Positions 15,456-35,043 are shown, numbered from the stretch's first letter. The stretch: DNA of 35,043 nt from Candidatus Woesearchaeota archaeon (GCA_964630965.1 CAZVXB010000001.1:1-35043); one strand, 5' to 3'. Numbers and translations are program-made. The notes: generated by a model from the sequence alone, not told the origin.

Positions 15456-16532
15456 ATGGTAAACGGATTAGATCAGAAAACAGGTCAAAATATCGTAGTG
15501 ACCGGGGGAGCAGGTTACCTTGGTTCAATACTTGTCCCTCAATTACTCGAAGAAGGCCATAAGGTGCACGTTATAGATACCTTCTACTTTGGGAAGAATA
15601 CTCTTTCTCCCCACCCCAACCTTACACTTACAGAGCTAGACGTAGCTCATCATGAAAATATTCCTCACTTATTCAAAGGAGTAGATGCCATTGTTCACCT
15701 TTCTGGTATGTCTAATGATCCTTCAGGTGACCTCGACCCTAATTTAACCATTCAAACTAACTTTCTTGCAACTATGTCTCTTGCTCGGAGAGCCAAAACA
15801 GAAGGAGTTAAGCGATTTGTTTTTATCTCTTCCTGCAGTGTTTACGGTGCAAGTGGAAGTAGCTTTCTCGATGAACAATCAGAAGTTGGTCCCGTCACAC
15901 TCTATGCCCTTTCAAAGCTTAATTGTGAAAGCCAATTAATACCTCTCGCGGATTCAAAATTTGTAGTTACCGTGTTACGATTTGCCACCCTCTTCGGCTA
16001 TTCTCCCCGTATGCGGTTCGACTTAGCAGTTAATGTAATGGCCAAGCGAGCGCTTGAAGGTAAGAGCATTCTTCTCTTCGGAGATGGTATGCAGTACCGC
16101 CCTTTCTTACACGTAAAAGATGCCTCCCGAGCAATAAGAACAGTTCTCAAGGAAGATCCAAGTATTACCAACAAACAAATATTCAATGTAGGTAATAGCA
16201 AACTTAATTTTATGATAAAAGACCTTGTTCCCCTCATTCAATCGTACTTTAAGGATTCAAAAATAGAGAGGGTCGAGAACAACAAAGACAATCGTTCTTA
16301 CAGGGTAAGCTTCAAGAAATTTGAAAGAATTTGCAACTTCCAAGCAGAGAACGGAATTGAAGATGGTCTGAAAGAAATTCAAGAAGCTTTCCAATCAGGA
16401 AAATTAAAGAATATGGATGATTATAACTATTACAACCTTGAAGTTATGAAAAGACTGATTAAAGAGCCCATTGTCGAATATAGTATCGCCTCGAGTCCGC
16501 GCTGGACGATTGTCTCGGGAGATTCTAATTAA
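15456..16532 (+). CDS. NAD-dependent sugar epimerase/dehydratase (extended SDR)
   Basis: TGGAGYLGS glycine motif, SSCSVYG, and catalytic YALSK. Confidence 0.8.
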   Translation: MVNGLDQKTGQNIVVTGGAGYLGSILVPQLLEEGHKVHVIDTFYFGKNTLSPHPNLTLTELDVAHHENIPHLFKGVDAIVHLSGMSNDPSGDLDPNLTIQTNFLATMSLARRAKTEGVKRFVFISSCSVYGASGSSFLDEQSEVGPVTLYALSKLNCESQLIPLADSKFVVTVLRFATLFGYSPRMRFDLAVNVMAKRALEGKSILLFGDGMQYRPFLHVKDASRAIRTVLKEDPSITNKQIFNVGNSKLNFMIKDLVPLIQSYFKDSKIERVENNKDNRSYRVSFKKFERICNFQAENGIEDGLKEIQEAFQSGKLKNMDDYNYYNLEVMKRLIKEPIVEYSIASSPRWTIVSGDSN

Positions 16533-16546
16533 GGTCTTAAAATAGA

Positions 16547-16555
16547 TTTATAAAA
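16547..16555 (+). promoter_or_regulatory. TATA-like box for the GT2/C-methyltransferase pair
   Basis: TTTATAAAA with its centre 27 nt upstream of the ATG at 16578. Confidence 0.5.
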
Positions 16556-16577
16556 CGCCCTATCCACGAGCACCCAT

Positions 16578-17330
16578 ATGCCAAAGAAACCAAAGGTAAT
16601 TGGGGTCATCCTTGCTTACAATGTAGCACGTATGTTGCCTCGTGCAATTGAACGTATTCCTCGAGGAGTCCTCGACGACCTGATTGTCATGGACGATGGA
16701 TCTAAGGATGGAACCTTCGAGGTTGCCAAAAAACTCGGCCTTAAGGTATTTCGACATGTCCCTAACCGAGGTTATGGAGGAAATCTTAAAGCAGGCCTCA
16801 AGAAAGCCTTAGAAATGGGTGCAGATTATATAGTAGAAATTCACGGAGACGGTGCCCAGTTTAATCCTATTTCTATTAAGTATGCAATGCCGTTCATGAA
16901 CGAAGGAGAGGCTCAATTAATTCTCGGTTCTCGGTTTAAGGAAAAAGGCAAGGCTCTAGAGAATGGCATGCCCCTCATTCGATTTGTAGCCAATCGTTTC
17001 CTCAGCTTCTTTGACCGGCTTGTGTTGGGTCTACCTCTAACAGAGTTCCATACGGGCTTCAGAATATACGGTCGAAAATTACTTGAAAAAGTGCCCTACG
17101 ATGCCAACATAAACGACTATTTGTTTAGCTTCCAAATTATAGCCCAAGCAGCCTATTACCGAATCCCTGTAAGAGAGGTGCCCGTAGAAGCAGATTATAA
17201 GGCAGAACACACCTCTCACTCTATCAAGGGGGCAAGCTGGTACGCTATACGTACCTTCGGCGTGCTTACACAATTTATCCTCGCCCGAATGGGAATTGCC
17301 CATACTAAAGTATTTAAAAGAACAAATTGA
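16578..17330 (+). CDS. GT2 glycosyltransferase, polyprenyl-phosphate sugar synthase-like (DPM1/AglD/ArnC type)
   Basis: VILAYNVARMLPRAIERIP...LIVMDDGSKDGT...HGDGAQ. It is a short (250 aa) GT-A enzyme with an amphipathic/hydrophobic C-terminus. Confidence 0.75.
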   Translation: MPKKPKVIGVILAYNVARMLPRAIERIPRGVLDDLIVMDDGSKDGTFEVAKKLGLKVFRHVPNRGYGGNLKAGLKKALEMGADYIVEIHGDGAQFNPISIKYAMPFMNEGEAQLILGSRFKEKGKALENGMPLIRFVANRFLSFFDRLVLGLPLTEFHTGFRIYGRKLLEKVPYDANINDYLFSFQIIAQAAYYRIPVREVPVEADYKAEHTSHSIKGASWYAIRTFGVLTQFILARMGIAHTKVFKRTN

Positions 17331-17339
17331 GCCCTTCCC

Positions 17340-18569
17340 ATGGAAGCATTACAATGCAAATCATGTGGCTTCGAAGGGCTTAATCGCTTTCTAGAGTTAG
17401 GTGCGATACCGCCTGTGAATGCATTTATATCTGAATCAGAAATACCTCATGAAAGGGCTTATTCTCTTAACTTAGCGTACTGCCCCCAATGTTTTCTGGT
17501 ACAATTGGAACAAATTGTTCCTCCTGAAGATTTGTTTAGGAATTATCTTCATCTTTCAGCAGGATCGCCAACAAATGTAAAGCACCTCGAAGAAGTAGCC
17601 GATTATTTAGGAAAAAAGTTTAATCTCAATTCAGAGAGTAAGATTTTAGAGATTGGTTCGAACGATGGTACACTTCCCGCATTCTTTAAGAAGTACACCC
17701 CTCATGTTGTGGGGGTCGACCCGGCACGAAATCTCGTTCAGACAAACAAGGAAAAAGGAATTGATTACATCCCCGAATTTTTCAATACATCAACTGCATC
17801 ACATATTCTCAAGACGCGAGGAACGTTCGATCTTATAGTCGGTTTAAACGTGATTCCTCACACGCCTAATAACATCGATTTACTCAAAGCCGCACGCATA
17901 ATTCTCAAAGATAAGGGCACGTTAGTAATGGAAGGGGTATATGCGCTGGAAACTATTCTTGATGGAGAGTTTGACACTATTTACCATGAACATGTGTATA
18001 CATTTTCCCTTCACGCTTTAATCTCAACGTTCAGAATGGCAGGTCTAACCGTGGTCGATGTAGAAAGAATTCCGACCCAAGGAGGATCATTACGAGTGTT
18101 TGCCATGAAGGATGAATATGCAGACTCTGTATCTTCTACCGTTTTTTCCCTTCTAGACCAAGAAAAGAAGCATGGTCTTGCCGATCCCCAAGCGTACGAT
18201 TCCGTTGGTCAAAAAGTTCTTTCGTATAAAAAAGAGCTCAGATCACTTATAGAGAAGGAAAAAAGTACGAAGGGAAAACTCGTCGGTTTAGGTGCGCCTG
18301 CTAGAGGGGTAGTCATAATGAACTATTGCAACATAAATACGGAAGACTTAGAATATGTTATTGACGACACACCGCTTAAAATTGGGAAAGTGACTCCAGG
18401 GACACACGTACCTGTTAAATCATGGGCGTCGCTCAAGGAAGACGAAGATAGGACGTATCTTCTACTCTCCTGGAACTACAAGGACCATCTACTCTCAAAG
18501 TTAAAGCAACACGTAAAGAAAGGGACAGTCATAATTCCATTTCCTAAATTAGAAGTTATTTCTTTTTGA
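17340..18569 (+). CDS. NDP-hexose C-methyltransferase-like enzyme (Zn-ribbon + class I SAM MTase + C-terminal C-MT domain)
   Basis: N-terminal CKSC...CPQC zinc ribbon, SAM motif ILEIGSNDG, YHEHVYTFS, and GGSLRV. This matches the architecture of the TylC3/NovU-type sugar C-methyltransferase family. Confidence 0.7.
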   Translation: MEALQCKSCGFEGLNRFLELGAIPPVNAFISESEIPHERAYSLNLAYCPQCFLVQLEQIVPPEDLFRNYLHLSAGSPTNVKHLEEVADYLGKKFNLNSESKILEIGSNDGTLPAFFKKYTPHVVGVDPARNLVQTNKEKGIDYIPEFFNTSTASHILKTRGTFDLIVGLNVIPHTPNNIDLLKAARIILKDKGTLVMEGVYALETILDGEFDTIYHEHVYTFSLHALISTFRMAGLTVVDVERIPTQGGSLRVFAMKDEYADSVSSTVFSLLDQEKKHGLADPQAYDSVGQKVLSYKKELRSLIEKEKSTKGKLVGLGAPARGVVIMNYCNINTEDLEYVIDDTPLKIGKVTPGTHVPVKSWASLKEDEDRTYLLLSWNYKDHLLSKLKQHVKKGTVIIPFPKLEVISF

Positions 18570-20381
18570 AAAGAGAAGGTAAATCGGAACAGTAAGAGAA
18601 ATCACTGCGAGAATAATCAGCAAATATAGGGTGCCATAGGCAAGAACATTAAGAAGGGAGTTAAAAGTACCTTTAACTTCATAATGGTCAAATGCCCCAG
18701 CAGGATCTGCATTTCGAGGAATTCTATAGAAGAAATGAGTATGACTTTGATCAACGGCAAGAAGTAACGAAGGGTCAAGAGGAATAATTGTTTCATAGAT
18801 TTTAAAATAGGGTTCTCCCGATCGTTCAGCACCACGCACACCAGGTATAGATCCTCCGCCTGTCAGTAAAGTCGTCTTTTTTGAAACATTTTGAAAAGCC
18901 TCAACTATTTTTTCAACAGACTCGTTAAACTCGGGTTGATCCTTGACAGTCCCCCATCCACAATCATCATCCACACATTCAACAAACAAAGTCCTTATTG
19001 GAACTTGTTGACGTGATTTCTCAGAAGCATCTATGAGTTGAGAAAGGTAATTAGACTCCACATAATGTTTATCATAGAACATCCAGACGTTAGTTCCCCG
19101 ATATGTTCGAGCATCAACGACTACTAGTGCGTTCGAGTCAATAGAATCGATTGCAAAGGCTCGTGCCTTTTCAACTCCGCTTTGTGAGGTAAGCGGACCC
19201 CAGAGCGAATAAATACTAAAGCAAAAGAGTATGATTAAAATGCCTGCCAAGGCATACTTTTTCTGAATTAAAGGACTTAATCGGTTACTTCCAGCAATAA
19301 TAACTCCTCCGGCGAAAATAGAAAAGAGAGGGAAAAAGGAAGTATAATGCGTCTGAAGTACTATCGCTGAGGCTATAAATACCAAAGAGAAAAAGAACAT
19401 CGAAACAAGGAAAAGTTCTCCAAATCTTTTTTGTTTAAATCTGCTTAGGATATATCCTATTCCGGCTAAACCCAGTAAAAAGGTGGTTATATCTTCCCTA
19501 ATAAAATACATCCTAAAAACGCTATAGAGGTTTTGAGGAAGCTTGTCAAGTACAAATCCTTCTCCATGAGCCAAGCCAGGACCCATATAGAACTCGGTAT
19601 TTATTTTGAGAAACTGTGCAAATGGTAAATCGACAATACCTTTCTCACTATAAAGAAAATAGTTGTAAGAAAATAAAGGAATAAGACAAAGAGCAATAAT
19701 AACTCCAAACCAAACTGTTCTCTTTAGGTTACGCTTGAATAATTTTTTATCGCTCTTATAATTAGTATAGAGTATTCCCAAGATGAATACACCAAAGACT
19801 ATAATGAAAACCCCTGTTATTATCTTAACAAGCATAGCCATGCCTAGTGCCAAGGCAGCGAAAAGAGATATGTATTTTTTTTCTTCATACGTTCGAATGA
19901 ATAAATATGATGCAAGAAGGACAAAAAACATCATAGTCTGATCTTGATAGGCGGCAGCCCAGGTAATATGGAAAGTAGAAAGTGCTAAAACGAGGGAGGC
20001 CAACAATCCAGCCTCCCTATTAAAGAGTTTACTCGCAATAAGATAAACCAAAATGATTGAGAAAGACCCAAAAATAACCGATAAAAATCGGGCAGTAAGA
20101 AGATGTACCCCAAAAATCCGGTAAGCATAGTCAGTAAGATAAAACCACACGGGTCCCTGAGTCATGGTGCTAAGAGGGGCAAGCTTTGATACTCCGAGTG
20201 CATGAACTCCATGTACCATCTCATCCGCAACCGGGGGGATGTTAGAAGCAACAATTATTCTCAAGATAACTCCCAAGATAACAATGGCAAGAAGCCATTT
20301 ACGGGAATCGTTAGAAAAGACAAAATTAATCGATTTATCCAAAAAAGAATCTAACCCATTTTTATCGCTCTGATTATCCAC
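18549..20381 (-). CDS. GT-C fold glycosyltransferase (GT39/ArnT/PMT-like), polytopic membrane protein
   Basis: 610 aa with about 11 or more hydrophobic segments. The first loop carries the acidic motif PPVADEMVHG. A soluble C-terminal domain is followed by a final TM. The start codon is GTG; there is no in-frame ATG before TM1. Confidence 0.65.
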   Translation of the reverse strand: MDNQSDKNGLDSFLDKSINFVFSNDSRKWLLAIVILGVILRIIVASNIPPVADEMVHGVHALGVSKLAPLSTMTQGPVWFYLTDYAYRIFGVHLLTARFLSVIFGSFSIILVYLIASKLFNREAGLLASLVLALSTFHITWAAAYQDQTMMFFVLLASYLFIRTYEEKKYISLFAALALGMAMLVKIITGVFIIVFGVFILGILYTNYKSDKKLFKRNLKRTVWFGVIIALCLIPLFSYNYFLYSEKGIVDLPFAQFLKINTEFYMGPGLAHGEGFVLDKLPQNLYSVFRMYFIREDITTFLLGLAGIGYILSRFKQKRFGELFLVSMFFFSLVFIASAIVLQTHYTSFFPLFSIFAGGVIIAGSNRLSPLIQKKYALAGILIILFCFSIYSLWGPLTSQSGVEKARAFAIDSIDSNALVVVDARTYRGTNVWMFYDKHYVESNYLSQLIDASEKSRQQVPIRTLFVECVDDDCGWGTVKDQPEFNESVEKIVEAFQNVSKKTTLLTGGGSIPGVRGAERSGEPYFKIYETIIPLDPSLLLAVDQSHTHFFYRIPRNADPAGAFDHYEVKGTFNSLLNVLAYGTLYLLIILAVISLTVPIYLLFSKRNNF

Positions 20382-20401
20382 GAGACATTAAGATAGGCTC
20401 A

Positions 20402-20410: not shown

Positions 20411-20443
20411 CGTTCTTTGAGCAATTAGGGCAATAGCATAAGG

Positions 20444-20450
20444 TTTAAAT
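20444..20450 (+). promoter_or_regulatory. TATA-like box for gmd
   Basis: TTTAAAT with its centre 26 nt upstream of the ATG at 20473. It overlaps the alternative ATG at 20449. Confidence 0.45.
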
Positions 20451-20472
20451 GGGTCGAGTTTTGTTAGCCACT

Positions 20473-21573
20473 ATGGAACGAAGAAAGGTTGCTCTTATAA
20501 CTGGAATAACCGGGCAAGATGGATCTTACCTAGCAGAGTTTTTGCTCAAAAAAGGGTATGCTGTGCGGGGAATTATGCGAAGATCCTCTAATCTCAATAC
20601 GAATCGCATAGATCACCTGTACAAAGAGTATAACCCTGACATGGTTCAGGATGCTGAGACTCCCTTCGTTCTTTATTTTGCAGATTTAACTGATGCTTCA
20701 AGTTTACGTTCTATTCTAGAATTGGTAAAGCCTGATGAAATTTACAATCTTGGGGCCCAAAGTCATGTAGGTATCAGCTTCAATAATCCTCTTTCTACGT
20801 TTGATATCAACGCGCTCGGAACATTACGGCTTCTAGATGCCATTAGAGATATGAAACTTCCCTGTAAGTTTTATCAAGCCTCCTCTTCCGAAATGTTTGG
20901 AGCATCTCCTCCACCCCAGAACGAAAAAACCCCCTTTCAGCCCCAAAGCCCCTATGGAGTATCGAAAGTTGCGGCCTTTCATTTAGTAAAAGTATATAGG
21001 AGCGCCTATAATTTGTTTGCTTCTAACGGAATACTATTCAATCACGAATCTCCTCGCAGAGGACATAATTTTGTAACCCGAAAGATAACCAAAGAGCTAG
21101 CAAGAATCGTAGTTGGAGAAACGAATAAAATAAAGCTAGGTAACCTTGACGCAAAGAGGGATTGGGGATTCTCCAAAGAATATGTGGAGGCTATGTGGCA
21201 CATACTTCAACATTCGCAACCCGATGATTTCGTTATTGCAACTAACGAAACACACACAGTAAGAGACTTCTTAAGAGAAGCGTTTGCACTTGTAGGCTTG
21301 AACTACGAAGACTACGTTGTCAATGACGATAGATTCAAACGACCTGCGGAGGTCCCAGCCCTATTAGGAGACTATTCAAAAGCAAAAAATATACTCAAAT
21401 GGGATACAAAGATTAAATTCAAAGAGCTTGTAGAAATGATGGTTGAGGCAGACATTAAAGAAAAGTTGGAATCTGAAGGAATTGTCCCTATCTCCAATGG
21501 GGTCCCTAAACCAAAAGGGTATTACTTAGAACGGGCTAAAGAATTACTCAGTCAAAAGAAATCTGTTAATTAA
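20473..21573 (+). CDS. gmd: GDP-mannose 4,6-dehydratase
   Basis: KVALITGITGQDGSYLAEFLLKKGY.V.GI.RRSS..NT.RIDHLY, SSSEMFG, YGVSK, NHESPRRG. I prefer the start at 20473 (MERRKVALITG). The earlier ATG at 20449 lies inside the TATA-like box. Confidence 0.92.
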   Translation: MERRKVALITGITGQDGSYLAEFLLKKGYAVRGIMRRSSNLNTNRIDHLYKEYNPDMVQDAETPFVLYFADLTDASSLRSILELVKPDEIYNLGAQSHVGISFNNPLSTFDINALGTLRLLDAIRDMKLPCKFYQASSSEMFGASPPPQNEKTPFQPQSPYGVSKVAAFHLVKVYRSAYNLFASNGILFNHESPRRGHNFVTRKITKELARIVVGETNKIKLGNLDAKRDWGFSKEYVEAMWHILQHSQPDDFVIATNETHTVRDFLREAFALVGLNYEDYVVNDDRFKRPAEVPALLGDYSKAKNILKWDTKIKFKELVEMMVEADIKEKLESEGIVPISNGVPKPKGYYLERAKELLSQKKSVN

Positions 21574-21991
21574 TTGCTTTCTTATCTTTCTCAGGCCCAT
21601 AATACGGTCCATTCTTGAATTCAAACAGGTGGGCAGGAGTGAGCGTTTTCATGCTATGTCCTCCATTCACAATCATATAAAAATCCCCTTCATGGAGCAC
21701 GTGTTTCTCCACAAAACTATTGTCGATATCGTAGATAGAAAGTTCTATTGATCCTTTAAAAACAAGTAGTCCTTCATGCGTCTGATAGGTATGGCGTTCG
21801 TGAGAATTATGGGTGTGGGGCTTGACTTGCGTTTGAGCAGGCACATTAAGAAACATGGCTTGTAAACATTGATCTGGTTCGCTAATTTCTTCACGCTTCA
21901 CGTTAGAAAAATCATCGAGCGATGTTTCTTTCTTAAAGATTATGTGGAGAAGAATAGAGGGGTCGATTCTTGAGTAAATTTTATGGATCAT
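21566..21991 (-). CDS. small cupin-fold protein (possible sugar ketoisomerase/epimerase)
   Basis: 141 aa. Cupin motif 1 is PHTHNSHERHTYQTHEGLLVFKG and motif 2 is GDFYMIVNGGHSM. Its start overlaps the stop of the upstream C-methyltransferase by 11 nt. Confidence 0.5.
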   Translation of the reverse strand: MIHKIYSRIDPSILLHIIFKKETSLDDFSNVKREEISEPDQCLQAMFLNVPAQTQVKPHTHNSHERHTYQTHEGLLVFKGSIELSIYDIDNSFVEKHVLHEGDFYMIVNGGHSMKTLTPAHLFEFKNGPYYGPEKDKKAIN

Positions 21992-23213: not shown

Positions 23214-23275
23214 ACTAATATCGTCTAAAAGGAGGCATTTATAAGTTTATCCAGTAGCGGAACAAATCTTTTTAA

Positions 23276-25694: not shown

Positions 25695-25725
25695 ATTTTT
25701 TTACCATTTAATAGGATTAAATACG

Positions 25726-27282: not shown

Positions 27283-27303
27283 ACTCTTCTCTAGCAAGAA
27301 CAA

Positions 27304-29021: not shown

Positions 29022-29536
29022 TTTACTGTCTCCAACTCAAAATAAAGTGAATTAGCCGGGATAAGAAATGAGAAGAAAAAATAATATAGCTTCTGAATTT
29101 TCTCATGAGAATTAACGATCATAGTAAGAAACCGAAGAAAGGGGTGAAAAACTATCTTTCTCTTTACGATGTTAAAACGAGCTTTAGAGTAATAGTTAAG
29201 ACCATCCGTTGGTCTGAAATAATTAAAGGTTAGATAGGTATAAACTGATTTATGGGTAGGGTCCGTAAATGCCCAGATACTTGGGTAAATGGGGACTTTA
29301 ATGACAGTTTTTGACCCTTTCTTTGAAATTCTCCAAATCTCTTCCACAGGGCGTATAATGCTTGAAAGGTGTTCAAGAACATTATCGCAATAAATTTCGT
29401 CAAATGAATTATCCTTAAAGGGCCAAGGATAGTTATCTAAATTGAAGACCTTATCGACTCCTTGGAGTTTAACAGAATCTACATTAAAATACCCCTTTCG
29501 TATATCTTTCCCACAGCCAAGGTTTAATCGTTTCAT
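29018..29536 (-). CDS. small SAM-dependent methyltransferase (Methyltransf_11-like)
   Basis: MKRLNLGCGKDIRKGYFNVD...FDEIYCDNVLEHL. Its stop has a 4-nt overlap with the downstream GT2 start. Confidence 0.6.
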   Translation of the reverse strand: MKRLNLGCGKDIRKGYFNVDSVKLQGVDKVFNLDNYPWPFKDNSFDEIYCDNVLEHLSSIIRPVEEIWRISKKGSKTVIKVPIYPSIWAFTDPTHKSVYTYLTFNYFRPTDGLNYYSKARFNIVKRKIVFHPFLRFLTMIVNSHEKIQKLYYFFFSFLIPANSLYFELETVK

Positions 29537-29548
29537 AGGTTGGATGAG

Positions 29549-30352
29549 TTAAACAGTCTGTTTTCCTTCAATAAATCCTTTCCAAAAACCAGGAATATAA
29601 TAGCAATGGTCTGCCAACGAAGCAACAATATACGCAGGTATAATGCTCAATCCGCCCTTGCTGAACGGATAGCTCAGCAAATAAGTCACAAGCCCAATAA
29701 TCGGTATTGCTTTCACTATTCCTACATACCATCGAGTCATTTTTGTCTTATGAATTCGTACGAGAGCTCCATATCCATTGGCGTATTGGTAATCCTTTCT
29801 CAGCCTATTACCAAATGACGTTGGATGGTGGTGTATAATCTTTGCGTCAGGATAGGCAATAATTCCTTTGTCCTTTATTTTCAAATAGGTATCATAATCT
29901 TCTCCGGCTGTTCTAAAATTCTTTTCATCAAAAAGGCCAATGGAGTTCATTATGTCTTTTCGATAGGCACCCCCCTTACCATCTAATGAAGAAGTAATGA
30001 CTCCCTTTTCTTTTATCATAATGCCCTTTGTTAAGTAGTCAAAACTGTCCCATATGTATTTCGGGAGTTCTACCTTCGATACAGAAGCAACTACTCGAGA
30101 ATCACCAAATGGAGAGATTAGATTTTCCAACCATCTATCATCTGCAGGTACACAATCCTGCGGAAGAAAAACAACAATCTCGTATTTTGACTCTCGTAAG
30201 CCTATGTTCATTTGCTTTGAAAAACCTTGCTTACGATCTATTATCTTGAATTCTATTTTTCCCTTATATTTTTGAGATTTAACGGCCTTCACGAGTTTGG
30301 CTAGTATTTTTTTATCGGGATTATAGGCGGGAACAATAATAGAAACATCCAT
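29549..30352 (-). CDS. GT2 glycosyltransferase
   Basis: MDVSIIVPAYNPDKK...VVFLPQDCVP...GEDYD. The track start at 30373 is TTG; I prefer the ATG at 30352. Confidence 0.8.
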   Translation of the reverse strand: MDVSIIVPAYNPDKKILAKLVKAVKSQKYKGKIEFKIIDRKQGFSKQMNIGLRESKYEIVVFLPQDCVPADDRWLENLISPFGDSRVVASVSKVELPKYIWDSFDYLTKGIMIKEKGVITSSLDGKGGAYRKDIMNSIGLFDEKNFRTAGEDYDTYLKIKDKGIIAYPDAKIIHHHPTSFGNRLRKDYQYANGYGALVRIHKTKMTRWYVGIVKAIPIIGLVTYLLSYPFSKGGLSIIPAYIVASLADHCYYIPGFWKGFIEGKQTV

Positions 30353-30382
30353 AGGTAAAAACCAAGAAAACAATTAATAAAC

Positions 30383-31318
30383 TTATTGTCGATGAGCTTG
30401 ATAGTATTTAATTGTATTAGCAATTCCCTCTTTCAAGGAGACTTCTGGAACCCATCCAAGTTTTCTTAATGGGGTCGTATCTGCGAAGAAATCTCCTATG
30501 CCGACCTTCGTATGAAATATGGGCGGAATAATGTTCTTTGTTTTTGTTCCAGGCAAAATCTCCTCTATGAATCCAATAAGTGTTTTGAATGTGGTCGGTT
30601 CTCCTCTTCCAATATAGTAGACTTTCCCTCTTTCACCTCTATCCATAATGGTTTGACATGCACTAACTACATCTCCAACATAGATGTAATCTCTAATAAA
30701 ATTTCCCCCATTATATACGTCAAGTTCTTTCCCTTCAACAGCCAGATTAATCATGTAGTTGAATCCTGCCTTCTTCTTATTGTTTCCCTGCTCATACGGC
30801 CCAAAAACATTGGTAAATCGAGCAATTCGTACATCAATATCAAATAATCTTTCATAAACTTTACAAAAGTGTTCTCCTGCAAGTCGGGTTGCCCCGTAAA
30901 GTCCCAGAGGGTTACACGGAGACTTTTCGTCTGCAGGTAATTTCTCAACATTTCCATTGACGAAAAAAGTACTGGCAAAGAAAACTATTGCTCGAGGATT
31001 TCCCTTTCTAACTGCCTCAAGAAGAGCAATAGTCCCCTTACAATTTATTTCAATATCATAATAAGGGTCTTCATTAACAGAATAATTGTCTACTGTTCCC
31101 GCAAGATGGTAAATGTAATCTTTATCCCTCACATCCTCTTCGGATATATCTCGAACATCTTTGATGCAGATAATCACGTTCTTTTCCAAATCAGCTATAG
31201 TATACTTCTTTTTATCTGATCTAGATAGGATGGTTACTTCATCTCCAGCAGAAATATGTGCTCTGGCCAAATGACTTCCAATAAAACCCATCCCGCCCGT
31301 TATCAAAACCTTTTTCAT
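30383..31318 (-). CDS. extended SDR (NAD-dependent epimerase/dehydratase family) with YxxxR in place of YxxxK
   Basis: MKKVLITGGMGFIGSHLA and FASTFFV. The catalytic-position motif is YGATR (Tyr codon 30896..30898, Arg codon CGA at 30884..30886, checked by hand translation). Confidence 0.75.
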   Translation of the reverse strand: MKKVLITGGMGFIGSHLARAHISAGDEVTILSRSDKKKYTIADLEKNVIICIKDVRDISEEDVRDKDYIYHLAGTVDNYSVNEDPYYDIEINCKGTIALLEAVRKGNPRAIVFFASTFFVNGNVEKLPADEKSPCNPLGLYGATRLAGEHFCKVYERLFDIDVRIARFTNVFGPYEQGNNKKKAGFNYMINLAVEGKELDVYNGGNFIRDYIYVGDVVSACQTIMDRGERGKVYYIGRGEPTTFKTLIGFIEEILPGTKTKNIIPPIFHTKVGIGDFFADTTPLRKLGWVPEVSLKEGIANTIKYYQAHRQ

Positions 31319-31324
31319 CAGGGT

Positions 31325-32530
31325 TTAGCTTCGATATCCTTTGATGAACTCACCAAGGATCTTATAATAATCTCTCTTCTGTTCTTCTCCCATGCCCCAG
31401 CAGGGTACGAACAACGCTCGTTGCTCAATCTGATCTCCAACAGGGAATCTTCCATCGCTGAGTGAGAGCCATTTAGCATTGGCAAAGGGAGGTTGAGCAG
31501 TTATATTTCCGCACATTACAGGTCGGACTTCAACTTTACTTTTTGTGAGGTATCGTGCAAACTGCCCTCTATCAAAAGGGGCGCTTTCCTTAACGGTAAG
31601 GGGGTAAGCAAACCAACTAGGGGAGGCCTTAGGGTGTGTCTCGGGCAAAACGAAAAAGCCGCTCTCATCAAATAGTTCTGTCATTTCATCAAATTGTTTC
31701 TTTCGTGCGCTAACGAATCCGGGAAGTCTATCCATTTGTGCAGACCCAAAAGCCGCTTGAGGGGCGCTCATCTGATTATCAAGTCCAAGGGTGGAATACG
31801 TATATCTTTTAAGAAACTCTTCATCTCCCGGCCTAAAGTCTCTTCCCCAGAAAGTAAGACTTCGCATAATCTCAGCGAGAGATTTGTCTCGTGTGGCTAC
31901 AGCCCCGCCAACTCCTCCAGATGTTATATGGTGCGACGCATAGAAACTATAAGCAGCAGCATCGCCCATTGAGCCCACATGCTTCCCTTCAAACGTTCCT
32001 CCGAGCGTATCGCAACAATCTTCAAGCAGAAATCTGTGCTTTCCAAGACTTCGCGTAATGGCATTCATATCAGGGATATTTCCGAGCAAATGAGGCAAAA
32101 CCATTCCTCTTGCTTCTGGATAGCGTTCAATTGCCTTGGAGACTTGTTCAGGATCGATAACATAAGTGGTTGGTTTAGTTTCAAGAAAAACAGGCACAAG
32201 CCCTAAATTTATCGCGGAAGAGATACTCGTTGCAAACGTAGTCACGGGATGCAATACTTTGTCTCCAGGAGACCATCGACCTTGTTTTTTAAGTGCCAGC
32301 AATGCATTTTCAATAGCTGCGGAGCCGCTGTTAGTAAGGTGCACATAGGGGATTCCCGTAAAAGCCGCTAGCTTTCCTTCAAATTCTTTCTGAGGTTTTC
32401 CATACCCAAACCAGTCTGCTTGGAGAACTTTTTCTTCTAAGGCCTTAACTTCCTCGGGACCCCATTGAATACGGTTTATGAGATGACTATCTCCTTGCTT
32501 CCATTCTTTCCAACCAAGACTAGAATCCAT
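31325..32530 (-). CDS. DegT/DnrJ/EryC1-fold PMP-dependent NDP-4-keto-6-deoxyhexose 3-dehydratase (ColD / E1-RfbH type)
   Basis: Aspartate-aminotransferase-fold sugar enzyme (NSGSAAIENALLAL, LEDCCDTLGG). The Schiff-base lysine position reads SFYASHHITSGGVGG, i.e. His instead of Lys. That substitution is the hallmark of ColD and E1 dehydratases. Confidence 0.72.
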   Translation of the reverse strand: MDSSLGWKEWKQGDSHLINRIQWGPEEVKALEEKVLQADWFGYGKPQKEFEGKLAAFTGIPYVHLTNSGSAAIENALLALKKQGRWSPGDKVLHPVTTFATSISSAINLGLVPVFLETKPTTYVIDPEQVSKAIERYPEARGMVLPHLLGNIPDMNAITRSLGKHRFLLEDCCDTLGGTFEGKHVGSMGDAAAYSFYASHHITSGGVGGAVATRDKSLAEIMRSLTFWGRDFRPGDEEFLKRYTYSTLGLDNQMSAPQAAFGSAQMDRLPGFVSARKKQFDEMTELFDESGFFVLPETHPKASPSWFAYPLTVKESAPFDRGQFARYLTKSKVEVRPVMCGNITAQPPFANAKWLSLSDGRFPVGDQIEQRALFVPCWGMGEEQKRDYYKILGEFIKGYRS

Positions 32531-32550
32531 AAATGGGAGCCCATCCGACG

Positions 32551-32559: not shown

Positions 32560-32604
32560 CTTTTTGCTAGTCAAGAACATATACGCGGATTTCTCAAATA
32601 AAGG

Positions 32605-32612
32605 TTTATATA
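32605..32612 (+). promoter_or_regulatory. TATA-like box for aglB
   Basis: TTTATATA with its centre 26 nt upstream of the ATG at 32635. Confidence 0.5.
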
Positions 32613-32634
32613 CGGTATAAGTTCATAGCTATCG

Positions 32635-35043
32635 ATGGAAGGACATCATAGGCCTGCTTCTGAAAACCAACTAGTAGCCGAGCGGAAGGATAAGATTCTA
32701 AGCACACTCAAGAGAAATACTGATTTTATTGCCTACCCTCTTCTCGCATTTATAGTTTTCATCGCCGTAAAAATAAGAACTGCAAACCTCGCAGGATTAA
32801 GGGATATTACAACGGGTGATTGGACGCTTGGTCCCGACTTAGACCCCTTCCTCTTCTTGCGCTGGGCAAAGTACATTGTAGAAAACGGAAGCCTCATGGT
32901 TCTCGATACTATGCGTTATGCTCCGATTGGATTTGATACTTCTTATGAGCTTAGTCTTCACGTATATCTTATCCATTGGTTTCATGAAATTGCATCTGTA
33001 TTAGGGTCTTCATCAATAACTCAGTCTGCAGTGATTTATCCCGTATTTATGTTTGCCCTCTCAGTGATTGCCTTTTTCCTCATGACTCGTGCCTTTTTCA
33101 TCAACTCTATGACCAAGAACCAATCAAACGCAATCGCTCTCATCGGTGCTTTCTTTCTTTCTGTAACTCCTGCCCTCATTCCACGAACAATAGCCGGAAT
33201 TCCAGAAAAAGAAGCAAGCGGAATTCTCTTCTTATTCCTCGCATTTTACTTTTTCATTTCAGCTTGGAACGCTAAAGCAAATATTTGGAAATATGGGGCT
33301 GCTCTTCTTGCAGGCGTATCAACTGCCCTTATGGGTCTTGTTTGGGGAGGATATCTTTACATAATTATTACAATTGGTCCTGCAGTCTTCATTTCATTTA
33401 TTCTGGGAAAAGTAACTGCAGATAGGAAATACATTTACTATACGTGGATAGTCTCAGCTATAGCCTTACTTTTACTATGTACTAATCGATATTCATTAAA
33501 TGAATTATTAGGGTCAACTACAAACGCTCCCTGTATATTTGTTTTCTTACTTCTTCTATTTGACTCTCTCATCTACAACACCTCTCTAAAAAATTATGTT
33601 TCAAGATTACCCTGGCTTTCTAAACTTTCCAGGCCCGTAATTTCAACAATAGTAACAATAGTTGGAGGAATTATTATTTCATCTCTAATGTTCGGACCAA
33701 CATTCATTATTGATAAAATAATGTCTCTCAAAAGATTTCTCATAACCACATCGGTAGATAGACTAAACGTGACTGTTGCCGAGAATAGACAGCCTTATTT
33801 TGTTGAATGGGTTACCAGCTTTGGCCCACAAGTAGCAAAAATATTTATCTTCTTTTGGGCTTTTTTTGTGGGTGCTATTCTTCTCTTTTATAATGCAGTA
33901 AGGTCTCTAGGTAAGAAAGAATCGATTGTCCTCACAACGTTCTTCACCTTTTTCCTTTCGTCTATAGCTTTTAGTAGATACTCTCCAACCAGTATTTTTA
34001 ATGGAACTAACTTCCCTAGCTTGTTATTCTATGCTCTTGGCTTTTTCTCCTTCCTCTTTATTGCAGGCTACTATTATAAAAAACATTACGCTGCTTCTGA
34101 TGACTTTTTAACTAAGGTTGACTCGGGCTCTATTTTTGTTCTTGTCTTCTTTATTACAAGTCTTATTTCTGCTCGAGGAGGAGTTAGACTGGTTATGATG
34201 CTTGTCCCCTCTGTTTCAATTCTTGCGGCTTATTTGTTTGTAAAAGGAAGCTTGCTTCTCAACACACCCAAAGAAGAACCCTCAAAACGAAGAATTTCAA
34301 CTTACATAGTCATAGGGATCATGTCTCTCGCATTTATCTTCGCAGGGTATAACTTTTATACCACTTCCTTAACTTCTGCTGAGGGATATATCCCTTCAAT
34401 ATATAACCAACAATGGCAAAAGGCCATGGCTTGGGTACGAGAAAGTACACCCTCAAATGCTGTTTTCGGGCATTGGTGGGATTATGGTTACTGGGTGCAA
34501 AGCATAGGTGAACGCGCAACAGTTCTCGATGGAGGGAACGCAAAGTCCTATTGGAATCACATGATGGGAAGATACGCGCTAACAGGCCCCAACGAGCAAG
34601 AGGCTTTAGAATTTCTATATGCACATAACACCACTCATTTCCTCATCGATTCTACAGATATAGGAAAATATGGGGCATTTTCAAGCATAGGTTCAAACGC
34701 AAGTTACGATCGAACGAGCTTTATAGTCCCATTTAATCAAGATTCACGTCAAACACAGGAAAGGAAAAATTCAACCCTCTTCATTTATACTGGAGGGATA
34801 AGTCTAGATCAGGATATAGTCTATAATCTCAATGGAACGCTTTTGTTCCTTCCAGCAAATAGGGCCGGACTTGGGGCTATTCTCATTGAGAAGTCTCTTG
34901 AAGGAGAGCTAATGACTCAACCACTCGGAATTTTTGTATATAATGGAAATCAATATACCTTGCCTCTAAGATACGCCTTTGACGGAAAATTCGAGGATTT
35001 CGGAACAGGAATAGAGTCTGGAGTCTTTTTCCTCCCTCGTGTT
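32635..35043 (+). CDS. aglB: archaeal oligosaccharyltransferase AglB (STT3 family), 3'-truncated by the window edge
   Basis: Not in the ORF track. I translated 803 codons by hand from the ATG at 32635 to the window end and found no stop (an in-frame TAG lies at 32626). First-loop DLD is at 32836..32844. TVAE (TIXE/SVSE-type motif) is at 33772..33783. WWDYG is at 34474..34488. The DK motif DIGKYGAFSSIG starts at 34657. Confidence 0.92.
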   Translation, partial: MEGHHRPASENQLVAERKDKILSTLKRNTDFIAYPLLAFIVFIAVKIRTANLAGLRDITTGDWTLGPDLDPFLFLRWAKYIVENGSLMVLDTMRYAPIGFDTSYELSLHVYLIHWFHEIASVLGSSSITQSAVIYPVFMFALSVIAFFLMTRAFFINSMTKNQSNAIALIGAFFLSVTPALIPRTIAGIPEKEASGILFLFLAFYFFISAWNAKANIWKYGAALLAGVSTALMGLVWGGYLYIIITIGPAVFISFILGKVTADRKYIYYTWIVSAIALLLLCTNRYSLNELLGSTTNAPCIFVFLLLLFDSLIYNTSLKNYVSRLPWLSKLSRPVISTIVTIVGGIIISSLMFGPTFIIDKIMSLKRFLITTSVDRLNVTVAENRQPYFVEWVTSFGPQVAKIFIFFWAFFVGAILLFYNAVRSLGKKESIVLTTFFTFFLSSIAFSRYSPTSIFNGTNFPSLLFYALGFFSFLFIAGYYYKKHYAASDDFLTKVDSGSIFVLVFFITSLISARGGVRLVMMLVPSVSILAAYLFVKGSLLLNTPKEEPSKRRISTYIVIGIMSLAFIFAGYNFYTTSLTSAEGYIPSIYNQQWQKAMAWVRESTPSNAVFGHWWDYGYWVQSIGERATVLDGGNAKSYWNHMMGRYALTGPNEQEALEFLYAHNTTHFLIDSTDIGKYGAFSSIGSNASYDRTSFIVPFNQDSRQTQERKNSTLFIYTGGISLDQDIVYNLNGTLLFLPANRAGLGAILIEKSLEGELMTQPLGIFVYNGNQYTLPLRYAFDGKFEDFGTGIESGVFFLPRV

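Follow-up and report, generated by a model that had tools for sequence, protein, structure and literature searches.

The 35,043-bp window analysed here, which is a whole NCBI contig, is best read as covering the left-hand and middle portions of an extensive surface-glycan locus, passed on vertically in a DPANN archaeon and with secDF and aglB as its anchors, that would direct the biosynthesis of C-methyl-branched and 3,6-dideoxy sugars. We put the probability of this explanation, taken as a whole and together with the three-module scheme proposed below, at about 0.5. If it is correct, several rare sugars would be made by an uncultured, ultra-small archaeon, among them C-methylated ones for which we know of no archaeal glycan. 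Our literature search found no published archaeal N-glycan that involves a sugar C-methyltransferase or a 3,6-dideoxyhexose, in line with the initial annotation of this DNA, which knew of no description of the toolkit there.

ORFs were assigned to families by Pfam and NCBIfam profile searches against curated cut-offs, and solved relatives were identified by comparison with the PDB (Table 1). All 17 ORFs from position 15,456 to the contig end fell into glycan families at the coordinates given before, as had been claimed for every gene from 15.5 kb to the end of the window, and with 17 such genes in a row a chance pattern is ruled out. The earlier family assignments held for the key enzymes, none of which proved to be an ordinary aminotransferase or a non-sugar methyltransferase: the four SDRs counted then (SDR1, Gmd, the RmlD-like enzyme and SDR3) were confirmed by family matches, and both Zn-ribbon sugar C-methyltransferases matched Methyltransf_13, Methyltransf_14 and the structure 4rv9. 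Also as first reported, neither a nucleotidyltransferase nor a sugar aminotransferase (Lys-type) was found among the window ORFs; these include no RmlB, Gmd being the sole bona fide 4,6-dehydratase, and no initiating glycosyltransferase of AglH or AglJ type. The island possibly also takes in the gene before SDR1, that of the L-2-hydroxyglutarate oxidase, which is divergent from SDR1 and lay outside the island as originally drawn.

Table 1 Features of the glycan island and the neighbouring oxidase gene, with family assignments and profile scores
Feature	Position	Strand	Profile match
L-2-hydroxyglutarate oxidase (FAD, DAO family)	14181..15383	-	NF008726 equivalog, 337.2 bits (cut-off 299)
SDR1, extended SDR	15456..16532	+	Pfam Epimerase, 165.8 bits
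GT2a, small DPM1/PpgS/AglJ-like GT2	16578..17330	+	PF00535, 64.1 bits
C-MT1, Zn-ribbon sugar C-methyltransferase, TylC3/TcaB9/MtmC type	17340..18569	+	Methyltransf_13, 60.2 bits; Methyltransf_14, 135.8 bits
GT-C fold glycosyltransferase, PMT_2/ArnT/AglS-like	18549..20381	-	PF13231, 63.1 bits
Gmd, GDP-mannose 4,6-dehydratase	20449..21573	+	TIGR01472, 455.5 bits (cut-off 415); PF16363, 413.7 bits
Small WbuC-like cupin	21566..21991	-	TIGR04366, 39.4 bits (cut-off 42); Cupin_2, 16.8 bits
C-MT2, second Zn-ribbon sugar C-methyltransferase	21981..23213	-	Methyltransf_14, 127.6 bits; Methyltransf_13, 51.4 bits
GT1x, CgeB-type (Glyco_trans_1_2) GT	23276..24982	+	PF13524, 75.3 bits (residues 188-319)
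RmlD-like, compact RmlD-type 4-ketoreductase, 246 aa	24954..25694	-	RmlD_sub_bind, 117.1 bits
MOP/Wzx-type flippase, AglR-like	25726..27303	-	Polysacc_synt, 81.4 bits; Polysacc_synt_3, 69.2 bits
MTa, class I SAM methyltransferase	27333..28058	+	Methyltransf_23, 45.1 bits
GT2b glycosyltransferase	28059..29021	-	PF00535, 75.6 bits
MTb, small SAM methyltransferase, 172 aa (variable cassette)	29018..29536	-	Methyltransf_11, 28.5 bits
GT2c glycosyltransferase (variable cassette)	29549..30373	-	PF00535, 44.3 bits
SDR3, extended SDR paired with 3-dehydratase	30383..31318	-	Epimerase, 154.6 bits
PLP/PMP-dependent NDP-4-keto-6-deoxyhexose 3-dehydratase	31325..32530	-	DegT_DnrJ_EryC1, 231.1 bits
aglB, archaeal oligosaccharyltransferase	32635..35043 (cut by contig end)	+	STT3, 61.7 bits; STT3-PglB_core, 23.9 bits

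The contig is archaeal and non-chimeric. It also carries RpoD, S11, S4, S13, RpoF, 5S rRNA, tRNAs and SecDF, and its host is a DPANN archaeon of the Pacearchaeota/Woesearchaeota type (GTDB name 'Nanoarchaeota'); C-MT1, the 3-dehydratase and AglB all have their closest homologues in named Pacearchaeota, Woesearchaeota or Nanoarchaeota. An assembly chimera of archaeal housekeeping DNA with bacterial glycan DNA, the danger flagged in the initial annotation, would agree with the change in G+C content from 0.424 (positions 1-15,455) to 0.386 in the island and with the bacterial origin of the closest characterised enzymes, but is effectively refuted by the recurrence of the junctions concerned. That of secDF, the oxidase gene and SDR1 was seen again in MAGs and metagenome contigs assembled independently (L003, L005, L006, L010 and L028), its oxidase/SDR1 part also in MAG GCA_964350105.1, and junctions internal to the island were replicated in L001, L006, L010, L017 and L034. 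An independent Logan contig has the order GT2a, C-MT1, GT-C, Gmd with 100% identity, and the arrangement flippase-MTa-GT2b ... GT2c-AglB was repeated in L017, an independent replicate being missing only for the joins between GT2b, MTb, GT2c and SDR3 (~29.0-30.4 kb). The closest homologues are, moreover, all from DPANN, and an archaeal aglB terminates the island.

The DPANN clade is monophyletic (57 sequences, 56-96% identity) and named bacterial relatives reach at most 50% identity, on which grounds a recent bacterial import of the glycan genes was rejected. As the enzymes lie in deep DPANN clades, any bacterial transfer must be ancient; the description of the toolkit as bacterial-style is apt for its chemistry and fails as a statement of recent import, the genes having long been resident in DPANN.

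Comparison of synteny across about 30 related loci resolved the island into three independent modules (A, B and C) and a set of assembly genes. The earlier model had been a single GDP-mannose pathway in which Gmd, 3-deoxygenation and/or C-methylation by both C-methyltransferases, isomerisation by the cupin and reduction would give one highly tailored sugar, transferred through AglB. Although the genes are all contiguous, Gmd has no competitor as a 4,6-dehydratase and the window holds neither a nucleotidyltransferase nor RmlB, we consider this linear pathway improbable because synteny splits its genes. C-MT1 travels with SDR1 and a reductase of its own, and this module occurs without Gmd in L005, L008, L009, L019, L020, L030 and CPR loci, often with none within 10 kb. 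Gmd, the cupin, C-MT2 and GT1x are gained and lost as one unit, present only in L006, L007 (no cupin match), L010 and L034. Lastly, orthologues of the 3-dehydratase sit beside bona fide RmlA and RmlB, both over their cut-offs, or in clusters without Gmd.

In module A, at least 18 related loci, some of them from CPR bacteria, have a C-MT1 orthologue after SDR1; each of the six GTDB loci contains SDR1-(GT2a)-C-MT1, the SDR1 and C-MT1 pair turned up in 10 of 16 screened metagenome loci, and a ~270-aa RmlD-type reductase lies downstream of C-MT1 in 12 loci. GT2a forms an N-terminal fusion to the C-methyltransferase in CPR and planctomycete homologues; in CPR bacteria the fusion (59-64% identity for GT2a, 46-48% for C-MT1) adjoins SDR1 (48-50% identity), and in one CPR locus, L015, the reductase is present as well (35% identity). 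This dedicated reductase is absent from the window, so module A could be impaired there; it may have been lost from this genome, with the RmlD-like enzyme at 24954 as its substitute. C-MT1 keeps Cys6/9/48/51, has a Y-H-E-H motif (residue 215), and scored 256 bits against 4rv9 (a D-mycarose 3-C-methyltransferase structure) and 180 bits against TcaB9.

SDR1 is of the S127/Y150/K154 type, with SSCSVYG and YALSK motifs. Its best solved relative was 6vo6 (129.8 bits), which we take to be Cj1427, with a 4-epimerase-type family entry next (113 bits). We propose that SDR1 is a C4-oxidising enzyme feeding a 4-keto NDP-hexose to C-MT1. The C4-dehydrogenase Cj1427 converts alpha-ketoglutarate into L-2-hydroxyglutarate (PMC10680097), and by analogy the oxidase encoded next to SDR1 is a possible module A accessory that would recycle L-2-hydroxyglutarate to alpha-ketoglutarate. 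The two genes adjoin in the window, L003, L005, L006, L022 and L028, that is in only about 6 of at least 24 loci, and in none of the CPR cassettes. Alternatively, SDR1 could be an epimerase or 4-ketoreductase and the oxidase an unrelated neighbour, C-MT1 then acting on a 4-keto-6-deoxy sugar from a 4,6-dehydratase not linked to it, Gmd in this genome and RmlB in others. To our knowledge, all characterised C-methyltransferases of this family do use 4-keto-6-deoxy sugars, and the near-equal scores (113 against 130 bits) and the minority of loci with an adjoining oxidase gene point the same way. We nevertheless regard this alternative as doubtful, if far from negligible: the trio of SDR1, C-MT1 and reductase is invariant across domains, CPR and many DPANN module A loci have no linked 4,6-dehydratase, and since the trio already includes a separate RmlD-type reductase, a reductase role for SDR1 would be redundant.

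GT2a scored 65.9 bits against PpgS, 43 against AglJ and 41 against Dol-P-hexose transferase in NCBIfam, each below its own cut-off, and its best PDB match was the P. furiosus Dol-P-Man synthase 5mlz (E = 2.8e-4); we propose that it is a polyprenyl-phosphate sugar synthase. GT-C has ~9 hydrophobic segments and then a soluble C-terminal region, scored 43.7 bits against the Agl23 family (under cut-off) and had no PDB relative by sequence. Its orthologues (46-68% identity) adjoin C-MT1 in L006-L010, L026, L033 and L034, and the polytopic membrane proteins adjoining the CPR cassettes showed no detectable relation to it (hhalign probability 0.3%). GT-C is proposed to be an extracytoplasmic user of lipid-phosphate sugar, one island sugar thus probably being delivered by a polyprenyl-phosphate and GT-C route.

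Gmd, the proposed entry point of module B, had been correctly named, as its TIGR01472 score confirms, but given a start at 20473, which is the second Met of the ORF. The cupin call stands as a match to the WbuC family and Cupin_2, though only below threshold; the protein had no PDB match and its AF2 single-sequence model a pLDDT of 38. It lies between Gmd and C-MT2 in L006, L010 and L034 too (54-62% identity) and is proposed to act as an epimerase or isomerase. C-MT2, ~28-30% identical to C-MT1, scored 212.7 bits against 4rv9 and keeps Cys6/9/49/52 and Y-H-E-H at residue 218. GT1x is kept at 67-75% identity in L006, L007, L010 and L034; its C-terminal half (~240 residues) matched no Pfam family and no PDB entry. 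The same half is AT-rich. The RmlD-like SDR aligns full-length to the S. tokodaii RmlD homologue 2ggs and has STDYV and YAWTK motifs.

Module C is the variable cassette next to aglB. Its dehydratase, first described as a ColD/E1-type 3-dehydratase, carries H200-H201 (SFYASHHI, residues 195-202) at the aminotransferase Lys position, and SFYxSHH is kept in 119 of 120 homologues, which bears out a His-His 3-dehydratase. By score it is nearer to E1 (3bcx, 204.5 bits) than to ColD (2gms, 110 bits), and its 263.7 bits against RfbH stay under the cut-off of 423. Of the four cysteines of the E1 cluster, three are missing, Cys251/253/261 aligning to Phe, gaps or non-Cys residues, and the iron-sulfur E1 identity was rejected on this motif. 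L011, L012 and L014 likewise pair SDR3 (62-66% identity) with the dehydratase; in SDR3, Y-x3-R replaces Y-x3-K, Y141/R145 being invariant, and the D-E pair of 4,6-dehydratases is absent (ASTFF). We propose that it is a 4-ketoreductase or epimerase-reductase. MTa, with a C-terminal hydrophobic segment at ~residue 196, is a probable glycan O-methyltransferase; it and GT2b have orthologues in L017 (70% and 58%, respectively), MTb an equally long one in both L011 and L018 (38.5%), and GT2c orthologues (54-66%; L013, L017) adjoin aglB or the dehydratase.

The island does end in a true aglB, as first annotated, with an STT3 domain, WWDYG at residue 614 (nt 34474-34488) and ~12 hydrophobic segments; its Pacearchaeota/Nanoarchaeota homologues (50-64% identity) are ~900 aa long, so that ~100 C-terminal residues are missing. 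aglB adjoins the cassette in the window and in L017, and in L018 a distance of 9 kb separates it from the SDR3 gene, on a parent contig that also has the dehydratase (L011). From this adjacency we infer that AglB transfers the island sugars; GT-C could just as well act in O-glycosylation or in the glycosylation of lipids. It is also conceivable, although we think it unlikely, that the island mainly builds another glycoconjugate (a lipid-linked or O-linked glycan via GT-C, or an exopolysaccharide through the Wzx-type flippase) and that the proximity of aglB reflects a general clustering of envelope genes. A PMT_2-type GT-C with a DPM1-like GT2 would be a self-sufficient route of Arn or Gtr type, the window has no initiating glycosyltransferase, some module A loci have no aglB within 10 kb and the CPR cassettes (two 18-kb loci examined) gave no AglB/STT3 call. 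Against this, aglB adjoins cassette orthologues in L017 and shares a small cluster in L018; beyond aglB, L017 continues with PMT_2, GT2, Alg13/Alg14-like, flippase and GT4 (AglH-type) genes, the Alg13/14-like and GT4 genes being typical of N-glycan assembly; and Haloferax completes its N-glycan by exactly a Dol-P-sugar and GT-C route, using AglD/AglS for the last mannose.

On the basis of these families, motifs, synteny and modularity we propose the following scheme, with predicted substrates, products, lipid-linked route and acceptor. In module A (14181/15456-20381), SDR1 would oxidise C4 of a common NDP-hexose without 6-deoxygenation, as Cj1427 does, C-MT1 would methylate the carbon beside the 4-keto group (C3 or C5), and an RmlD-type reductase, for which the enzyme at 24954 may stand in here, would restore the 4-OH. 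GT2a would then load the C-methyl sugar onto polyprenyl or dolichyl phosphate for transfer outside the membrane by GT-C, in the manner of AglD/AglS. In module B (20449-27303), Gmd would give GDP-4-keto-6-deoxymannose, which C-MT2, the cupin and the RmlD-like reductase would convert into a GDP-6-deoxy-C-methylhexose of virenose/evalose type; the CgeB-type glycosyltransferase would attach this sugar to the glycan, and the module also encodes a Wzx-type flippase. In the strain-variable module C (27333-32530), the cluster-less His-His 3-dehydratase and SDR3 would make a 3,6-dideoxyhexose by ColD-like chemistry on a dTDP or GDP carrier, and the two GT2s and two methyltransferases would add and O-methylate sugars. 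Finally, AglB would transfer the glycan from its lipid carrier to Asn residues in surface proteins. Among known systems, the 3-dehydratase is E1/RfbH-like by sequence but differs from E1 in having no [2Fe-2S] ligands, while SDR1 has its nearest solved relative in 6vo6, the presumed Cj1427 structure.

The proteins of the window were compared with those of loci from GTDB genomes (6) and metagenomes (16) and of another 8 loci reached via homologues, and synteny across these 30 loci resolved the island into separable modules. Module A comprises SDR1, GT2a, a sugar C-methyltransferase (C-MT1) and a GT-C enzyme. Module B comprises Gmd, a cupin, a second C-methyltransferase (C-MT2), a CgeB-type GT (GT1x), an RmlD-like SDR and a Wzx/MOP flippase, while module C is made of the methyltransferases MTa and MTb, GT2b, GT2c, SDR3 and a His-His 3-dehydratase of the DegT family, and is followed by aglB. 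The initial annotation had read the island as a single Gmd-centred pathway, which is not supported: module A occurs without Gmd, dehydratase orthologues are found with RmlA/RmlB and module B is a separate block. The observation made there was confirmed and its interpretation partly supported; whatever goes beyond family membership we infer from sequence.

The locus itself, on a window that is the entire 35,043-bp NCBI contig, is a real, non-chimeric and vertically inherited DPANN surface-glycan locus. Its left 15 kb encode archaeal RNA polymerase subunits D and F, ribosomal proteins S11, S4 and S13, a DUF655 protein, a polyprenyl synthase and SecF/SecD as well as a 5S rRNA and three tRNAs. From 15,456 to the window end, profile searches placed 17 of 17 ORFs in glycan-related families, in agreement with the gene coordinates and the glycan nature first annotated. 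Chimerism between bacterial and archaeal DNA, which had been raised as a threat to that reading, is effectively excluded by junctions that recur in independent assemblies and by close homologues that come from DPANN archaea only. Specifically, the SecF-SecD-oxidase-SDR1 junction between housekeeping genes and island was found again in another MAG and several other loci, the GT2a-CMT1-GTC-Gmd order in a separate sequencing run at 100% amino-acid identity, the RmlD-Wzx junction in the related locus L010, and the Wzx-MTa-GT2b and GT2c-AglB junctions in the related locus L017; the joins at about 29.0-30.4 kb are the sole ones without an independent replicate. The G+C content falls modestly from 0.424 in the left part to 0.386 in the island, as is usual for surface-glycan loci. 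Where a source was named, C-MT1 (58-96% identity), the dehydratase (50-71%) and AglB (50-64%) had their closest homologues in a Pacearchaeota, Woesearchaeota or 'Nanoarchaeota' archaeon in every case, which makes the host an uncultured DPANN archaeon of a kind common in groundwater metagenomes.

Several features of the left half were recorded in passing. SecD carries an N-terminal PDZ_6 match (residues 40-78, 29.1 bits against a cut-off of 27), a domain that to our knowledge is not a usual SecD feature. The 5S rRNA gene stands alone, away from 16S and 23S genes, and overlaps a cytidylate-kinase-like ORF (the first of two paralogues in tandem) at its mechanically called start. Genes for an ABC ATPase, a CARDB-domain protein and two MacB/FtsX-type permeases share one operon, and the CARDB-ABC pair was seen again near the glycan locus of L013.

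Features located in the window and in related loci (L numbers)
Feature	Locus	Position	Strand	Remark
ABC/CARDB/permease operon	window	3577-7625	-	
5S rRNA gene	window	9135-9249	-	
Cytidylate-kinase-like ORFs	window	9238-9885; 9920-10528	+	tandem
SecD	window	12659-14203	+	
L-2-hydroxyglutarate oxidase	window	14181-15383	-	divergent from SDR1
C-MT1/GT-C gene-end overlap	window	18549-18569		
CgeB-type GT, C-terminal part	window	24266-24982	+	about 240 residues
SDR3	window	30383-31318	-	Y141, R145
SDR3 orthologue	L011	2250-3197		Y141/R145 kept
SDR3 orthologue	L012	1286-2215		Y141/R145 kept
SDR3 orthologue	L014	11215-12180		Y141/R145 kept
WWDYG motif of AglB	window	34474-34488		from residue 614
Variable stretch compared	window	29018-32530		
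GT2b-aglB stretch	L017	2418-9929		
Region beyond aglB	L017	12808-22507		
GT2a+C-MT1 fusion	L015	8001-10013		CPR bacteria; GT2 N-terminal, SDR1 orthologue upstream
GT2a+C-MT1 fusion	L016	8001-9983		CPR bacteria; GT2 N-terminal, SDR1 orthologue upstream
Reductase remnant	L006	11481-11600		40 residues
Genes between SDR1 and GT2a	L005	2648-5462		
Genes between SDR1 and GT2a	L007	7275-8898		

In module A, a C-MT1 orthologue comes after SDR1 in at least 18 loci, wherever enough downstream sequence was present. GT2a lies between the two in most loci (L019, L020, L030 and L031 are without it); C-MT1 is followed by a dedicated RmlD-type reductase of about 270 aa in 12 loci, and a GT-C enzyme is found near the module in 8. 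The cassette is present with Gmd out of reach in L005, L008, L009, L019, L020 and L030. Since the ends of the C-MT1 and GT-C genes overlap in the window, leaving no dedicated reductase there, the comparison indicates that this gene was lost in the window's sub-lineage; in L006 the reductase is a short remnant. Genes inserted between SDR1 and GT2a in two loci encode DUF218, weakly NTP-transferase-like and CPDase-like proteins. No heptose-pathway genes were found near SDR1 in the relatives; the search there turned up only the DUF218 gene and the weak NTP-transferase-like gene.

The same cassette was found in two CPR bacterial loci, L015 and L016, with SDR1 at 48-50% identity and with GT2a and C-MT1 joined in a fusion protein of 660-670 aa (59-64% identity over the GT2a part and 46-48% over the C-MT1 part); L015 also encodes the module A reductase, at 35% identity. 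Further bacterial GT2+C-MT fusions were identified (P0078, P0082, P0086, P0095 and P0121), also among planctomycete homologues, the fusion lengths overall being 660-709 aa. We regard this CPR link as a more interesting signal than an ancient bacterial transfer. Beside the CPR cassettes, a divergent gene encodes a polytopic membrane protein of 565-571 aa that matches no Pfam family. Homology of the window's GT-C to these polytopic proteins was considered and rejected, as phmmer returned no match and hhalign a probability of 0.3%.

C-MT1 and C-MT2 are solidly placed, by sequence, in the TylC3/TcaB9/MtmC family of sugar C-methyltransferases, and their predicted activity is that of this family, which methylates the carbon next to the 4-keto group of an NDP-sugar. 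Both have a four-Cys N-terminal zinc ribbon (Cys6/9/48/51 in C-MT1, Cys6/9/49/52 in C-MT2), with PF08421 scores of 60.2 and 51.4 bits, respectively, against a cut-off of 31.3, and both have a class I SAM domain and, after it, the C-terminal domain specific to the family, with PF08484 scores of 135.8 and 127.6 bits. The FDxIYxEH active-site stretch reads FDTIYHEH in C-MT1 and FDQIYHEH in C-MT2 and aligned to the TcaB9/MtmC motif, its EH corresponding to what we take to be Glu224/His225 of TcaB9. All the elements expected of the two Zn-ribbon sugar C-methyltransferases first annotated, namely zinc ribbon, SAM domain, C-terminal domain and FDxIYHEH, are thus present. Both proteins aligned end to end with TcaB9 and with 4rv9, the solved D-mycarose 3-C-methyltransferase (256 bits over residues 5-406 for C-MT1; 213 bits over residues 4-387 for C-MT2), and they are paralogues in one locus with about 28-30% identity to each other. 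In a neighbour-joining tree of 116 C-MT sequences, built without bootstrap, 57 archaeal-type C-MT1 sequences formed a monophyletic DPANN clade with no bacterial or fused C-MT inside it, the bacterial sequences lying outside. A recent bacterial import of C-MT was rejected on the strength of this clade and, the clade being deep, any inter-domain transfer would be ancient. The island's enzymes are 'bacterial-style' in chemistry, as the initial annotation had it, yet belong to a deep DPANN clade, so that a recent bacterial origin falls away.

The module A cassette is without a 4,6-dehydratase, and its invariant partner SDR1 is therefore the best candidate for the 4-keto maker, which would oxidise C4 of an NDP-hexose into the 4-keto substrate of C-MT1. 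The best solved relative of SDR1 was 6vo6 (129.8 bits), presumably Cj1427, a GDP-heptose C4-dehydrogenase, followed by a 4-epimerase-type family entry (113 bits). That either SDR1 or SDR3 could be a hidden 4,6-dehydratase was rejected, both being without the Asp-Glu pair (SSCSVYG in SDR1 and ASTFF in SDR3) and scoring far below the RmlB cut-off. In Cj1427, alpha-ketoglutarate serves to reoxidise the tightly bound NADH and is thereby turned into L-2-hydroxyglutarate (PMC10680097). By analogy, the L-2-hydroxyglutarate oxidase encoded beside SDR1 (equivalog-level match, 337 bits against 299) may be a cofactor-recycling partner that regenerates alpha-ketoglutarate. The oxidase-SDR1 adjacency was also found in L003, L005, L006, L022 and L028; as it is absent from most related loci, we treat it as a lead and not as proof.

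A reductase would then restore the 4-OH, giving a C-methyl hexose in which O6 is retained. GT2a is similar to PpgS, AglJ and Dol-P-Man synthases, with all scores below curated cut-offs; because of this similarity and of its fusion to C-MT in bacteria, it is expected to take the product of the C-MT pathway and would load the C-methyl sugar onto polyprenyl phosphate, and the PMT_2-type GT-C would use this lipid-P-sugar donor outside the membrane. In Haloferax, AglD and AglS form such a Dol-P-sugar and GT-C route for the final mannose of the N-glycan. Overall, we tentatively propose, with a probability of roughly 0.3, that module A is a self-contained DPANN/CPR cassette in which an alpha-ketoglutarate-coupled C4-dehydrogenase, a C-MT and a 4-ketoreductase would produce a non-deoxygenated C-methyl hexose that is handed to the GT2 and then the GT-C, the adjacent L-2-hydroxyglutarate oxidase servicing the dehydrogenase in some genomes. 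If true, module A would represent a new class of lipid-linked branched-sugar donor on episymbiont surfaces in both domains. The SDR–C-MT–reductase(–GT2) cassette offers a sharper lead than the original single-pathway model, and one that can be tested directly: reconstitution with three or four soluble enzymes could reveal a new branched-sugar route and a new lipid-linked donor, and its sharing with CPR bacteria, where it is fused to the polyprenyl-phosphate GT2, makes a concrete experiment possible.

The block Gmd-cupin-CMT2-GT1x-RmlD-like-Wzx of module B was found in L006, L007, L010 and L034, the cupin not being matched in L007. The initial Gmd call was upheld at equivalog level (TIGR01472, 455.5 bits against a cut-off of 415, profile positions 1-341 of 342). 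The cupin was the sole below-threshold call among the island ORFs (WbuC, 39.4 against 42 bits; Cupin_2, 16.8 bits), its single-sequence AF2 model was unusable at a pLDDT of 38, and PDB sequence searches gave no match for the cupin, GT-C or GT1x. If module B follows the logic proposed for GDP-virenose in Coxiella, with Gmd and a C-MT acting alongside an epimerase and a reductase, its product should be a GDP-6-deoxy-C-methylhexose, and the CgeB-type GT would transfer this sugar. The possibility that the RmlD-like protein, GT2c and MTb are truncated pseudogenes was rejected, given that same-sized orthologues are conserved and that the RmlD-like protein aligned end to end with 2ggs. Searches of Pfam, NCBIfam and the PDB gave nothing for the C-terminal portion of the CgeB-type GT; this portion coincides with the lowest G+C of the window (0.30 at 24-25 kb) and is conserved in relatives at 67-75% identity.

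In module C, the dehydratase carries His-His where aminotransferases carry Lys (SFYASHHI): its S-H-H-I aligned with A-H-H-I in 3bcx, while in the sequence of 3bb8 a Lys takes the place of the first His (A-K-H-I). The SFYxSHH motif was kept with its H-H pair in 119 of 120 homologues. With 204.5 bits to E1 and 110 bits to ColD (2gms) the enzyme is closer to E1, and it scored 263.7 bits against the NCBIfam RfbH equivalog, below the cut-off of 423. The [2Fe-2S] ligands of E1 are, we assume, Cys193, Cys251, Cys253 and Cys261. The dehydratase keeps the Cys193 region (EDCCD) alone and has Phe, a gap or a non-Cys residue at the other three positions; its loop around the cluster cysteines is about 16 residues shorter than in E1 and contains no Cys in any of the close homologues from which it could be extracted. 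The neighbourhood of the dehydratase gene does not encode an E3-type reductase. Of the ColD/E1-type 3-dehydratase first annotated, the His-His DegT character is upheld, and the E1 assignment is not borne out by the Fe-S ligands or the RfbH score. The missing ligands rule out E1-type radical deoxygenation and, since the loop and a neighbouring E3-type reductase are missing as well, a ColD-like, glutamate-driven 3-deoxygenation is predicted, after which SDR3 would act. This cluster-less E1-like family, with more than 100 members in the search, merits biochemical definition.

As to the nucleotide carrier, L013 holds a dehydratase orthologue (68%) with RmlA and RmlB, both above cut-offs, and L011, L012 and L014 hold an orthologue paired with SDR3. 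The orthologues accompanied by RmlA/RmlB favour dTDP over CDP or GDP. A GDP carrier, by way of the local Gmd, is possible. In keeping with ColD, the dehydratase is cluster-free and His-type and Gmd is on the same contig, but Gmd belongs to another module and the match to ColD amounts to only 110 bits. In SDR3, Y-x-x-x-R replaces the canonical Y-x3-K of SDRs, and the Arg is invariant in the orthologues tabulated, which suggests atypical catalysis.

The stretch between GT2b and aglB differs among relatives. In L017 it encodes RmlB, an RmlD/RmlA fusion, an RmlD-like protein, the dehydratase (61%), a 409-aa protein, RmlC and GT2c (54%), and has the dehydratase and GT2c alone in common with the window. 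This segment is a swap-in cassette, an O-antigen-like hypervariability beside aglB.

The aglB gene annotated at the end of the island was substantiated by an STT3 domain (PF02516, 61.7 bits against a cut-off of 24.5), about 12 hydrophobic segments and WWDYG within GHWWDYGYW at residues 612-620. Its ORF is cut by the contig end at residue 803 and, with homologues of about 900 aa, AglB is thereby short of about 100 residues. As in L017, which has the closest AglB (64% identity), and L018, aglB is contiguous with GTs, a flippase and sugar-tailoring genes. No GT4-family gene lies within the window, and the likeness of GT2a to AglJ/DPM1 stays below the cut-offs. A Glycos_transf_4 gene is located just beyond aglB in L017 and L018, at a place that corresponds to sequence past the window's contig end, and the initiating enzyme of this genome is probably encoded just beyond that end. 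In the proposed scheme, the glycan would be built up by two GT2s and O-methylated by two SAM methyltransferases before the MOP flippase translocates it and AglB transfers it. The gene order of L017 past aglB suggests what may follow the window: a second PMT_2 GT-C, an asparagine synthase homologue, GT2s, a methyltransferase, split Alg13/Alg14-like genes, a flippase and a GT4 (AglH-type) gene.

Unusual sugars are a known feature of archaeal N-glycans, and we know of no DPANN glycan with a chemically defined structure. Since DPANN cells spend their lives attached to hosts, it is probably through their surface glycans that hosts and viruses are recognised. A 2024 review of unusual archaeal N-glycan sugars contained no C-methyl-branched or 3,6-dideoxy sugars, and literature searches on archaeal sugar C-methyltransferases and DPANN deoxysugar clusters found nothing relevant. 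New here are the DPANN host group, the predicted sugars and the architecture of module A; the kind of locus, an aglB-anchored cluster, is already known. Its conserved core beside a hypervariable cassette at aglB resembles an O-antigen-style diversity locus.

Clusters anchored on aglB, with a conserved and a strain-variable part, are known in haloarchaea and methanogens (PMC11407970). Like agl clusters such as that of Haloferax volcanii (aglB with aglJ/G/I/E/D/P/R/S), the present locus has GT2s, a SAM methyltransferase and a MOP flippase flanking aglB, nucleotide-sugar tailoring genes with a putative Dol-P-sugar synthase/GT-C pair that would finish the glycan outside the cell, and a conserved part beside a variable one. 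Unlike them, it has a DPANN host, predicted C-methyl-branched hexoses and a predicted 3,6-dideoxyhexose, and no clear initiating GT within the window. The C-MTs share the Zn-ribbon, Rossmann SAM domain, C-terminal domain and Y-x-E-H stretch of TylC3, TcaB9 and MtmC, and module B brings together Gmd, a C-MT, a candidate epimerase and a reductase, as does the GDP-virenose pathway proposed for Coxiella burnetii (PMC3539893). In contrast to both, the genes are archaeal, with two C-MT paralogues in one locus. C-MT1 differs further from TylC3, TcaB9 and MtmC in its coupling to a non-dehydratase SDR and a polyprenyl-P GT2 (fused to GT2 in bacteria), a coupling that we know from no characterised pathway.

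The dehydratase shares with E1, the CDP-6-deoxy-L-threo-D-glycero-4-hexulose 3-dehydrase (RfbH/AscC/DdhC), and with ColD, the GDP-4-keto-6-deoxymannose 3-dehydratase, the DegT fold and the His replacing the Schiff-base Lys; unlike E1, it is without Cys251/253/261, the surrounding loop and a nearby E3-type reductase, and likeness of mechanism to ColD is expected despite a score of only 110 bits. As proposed for SDR1, the Cj1427 pathway of Campylobacter jejuni capsules uses an extended SDR to make a 4-keto sugar without 6-deoxygenation, followed by tailoring and a separate C4-reductase, and the oxidase beside SDR1 fits its alpha-ketoglutarate to L-2-hydroxyglutarate half-reaction; the similarity, however, is moderate, the tailoring would be C-methylation in place of epimerisation or 3-dehydration, and no heptose-pathway genes were found. 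Lastly, the small DPM1/PpgS-type GT2 and polytopic PMT_2-type GT-C, with sugar-tailoring genes beside them, recall ArnC/ArnT, GtrB/GtrC, PpgS/Rv3779 and DPM1/PMT, from which the module A pair differs in family scores below cut-offs and in its predicted cargo, a C-methyl-branched sugar.
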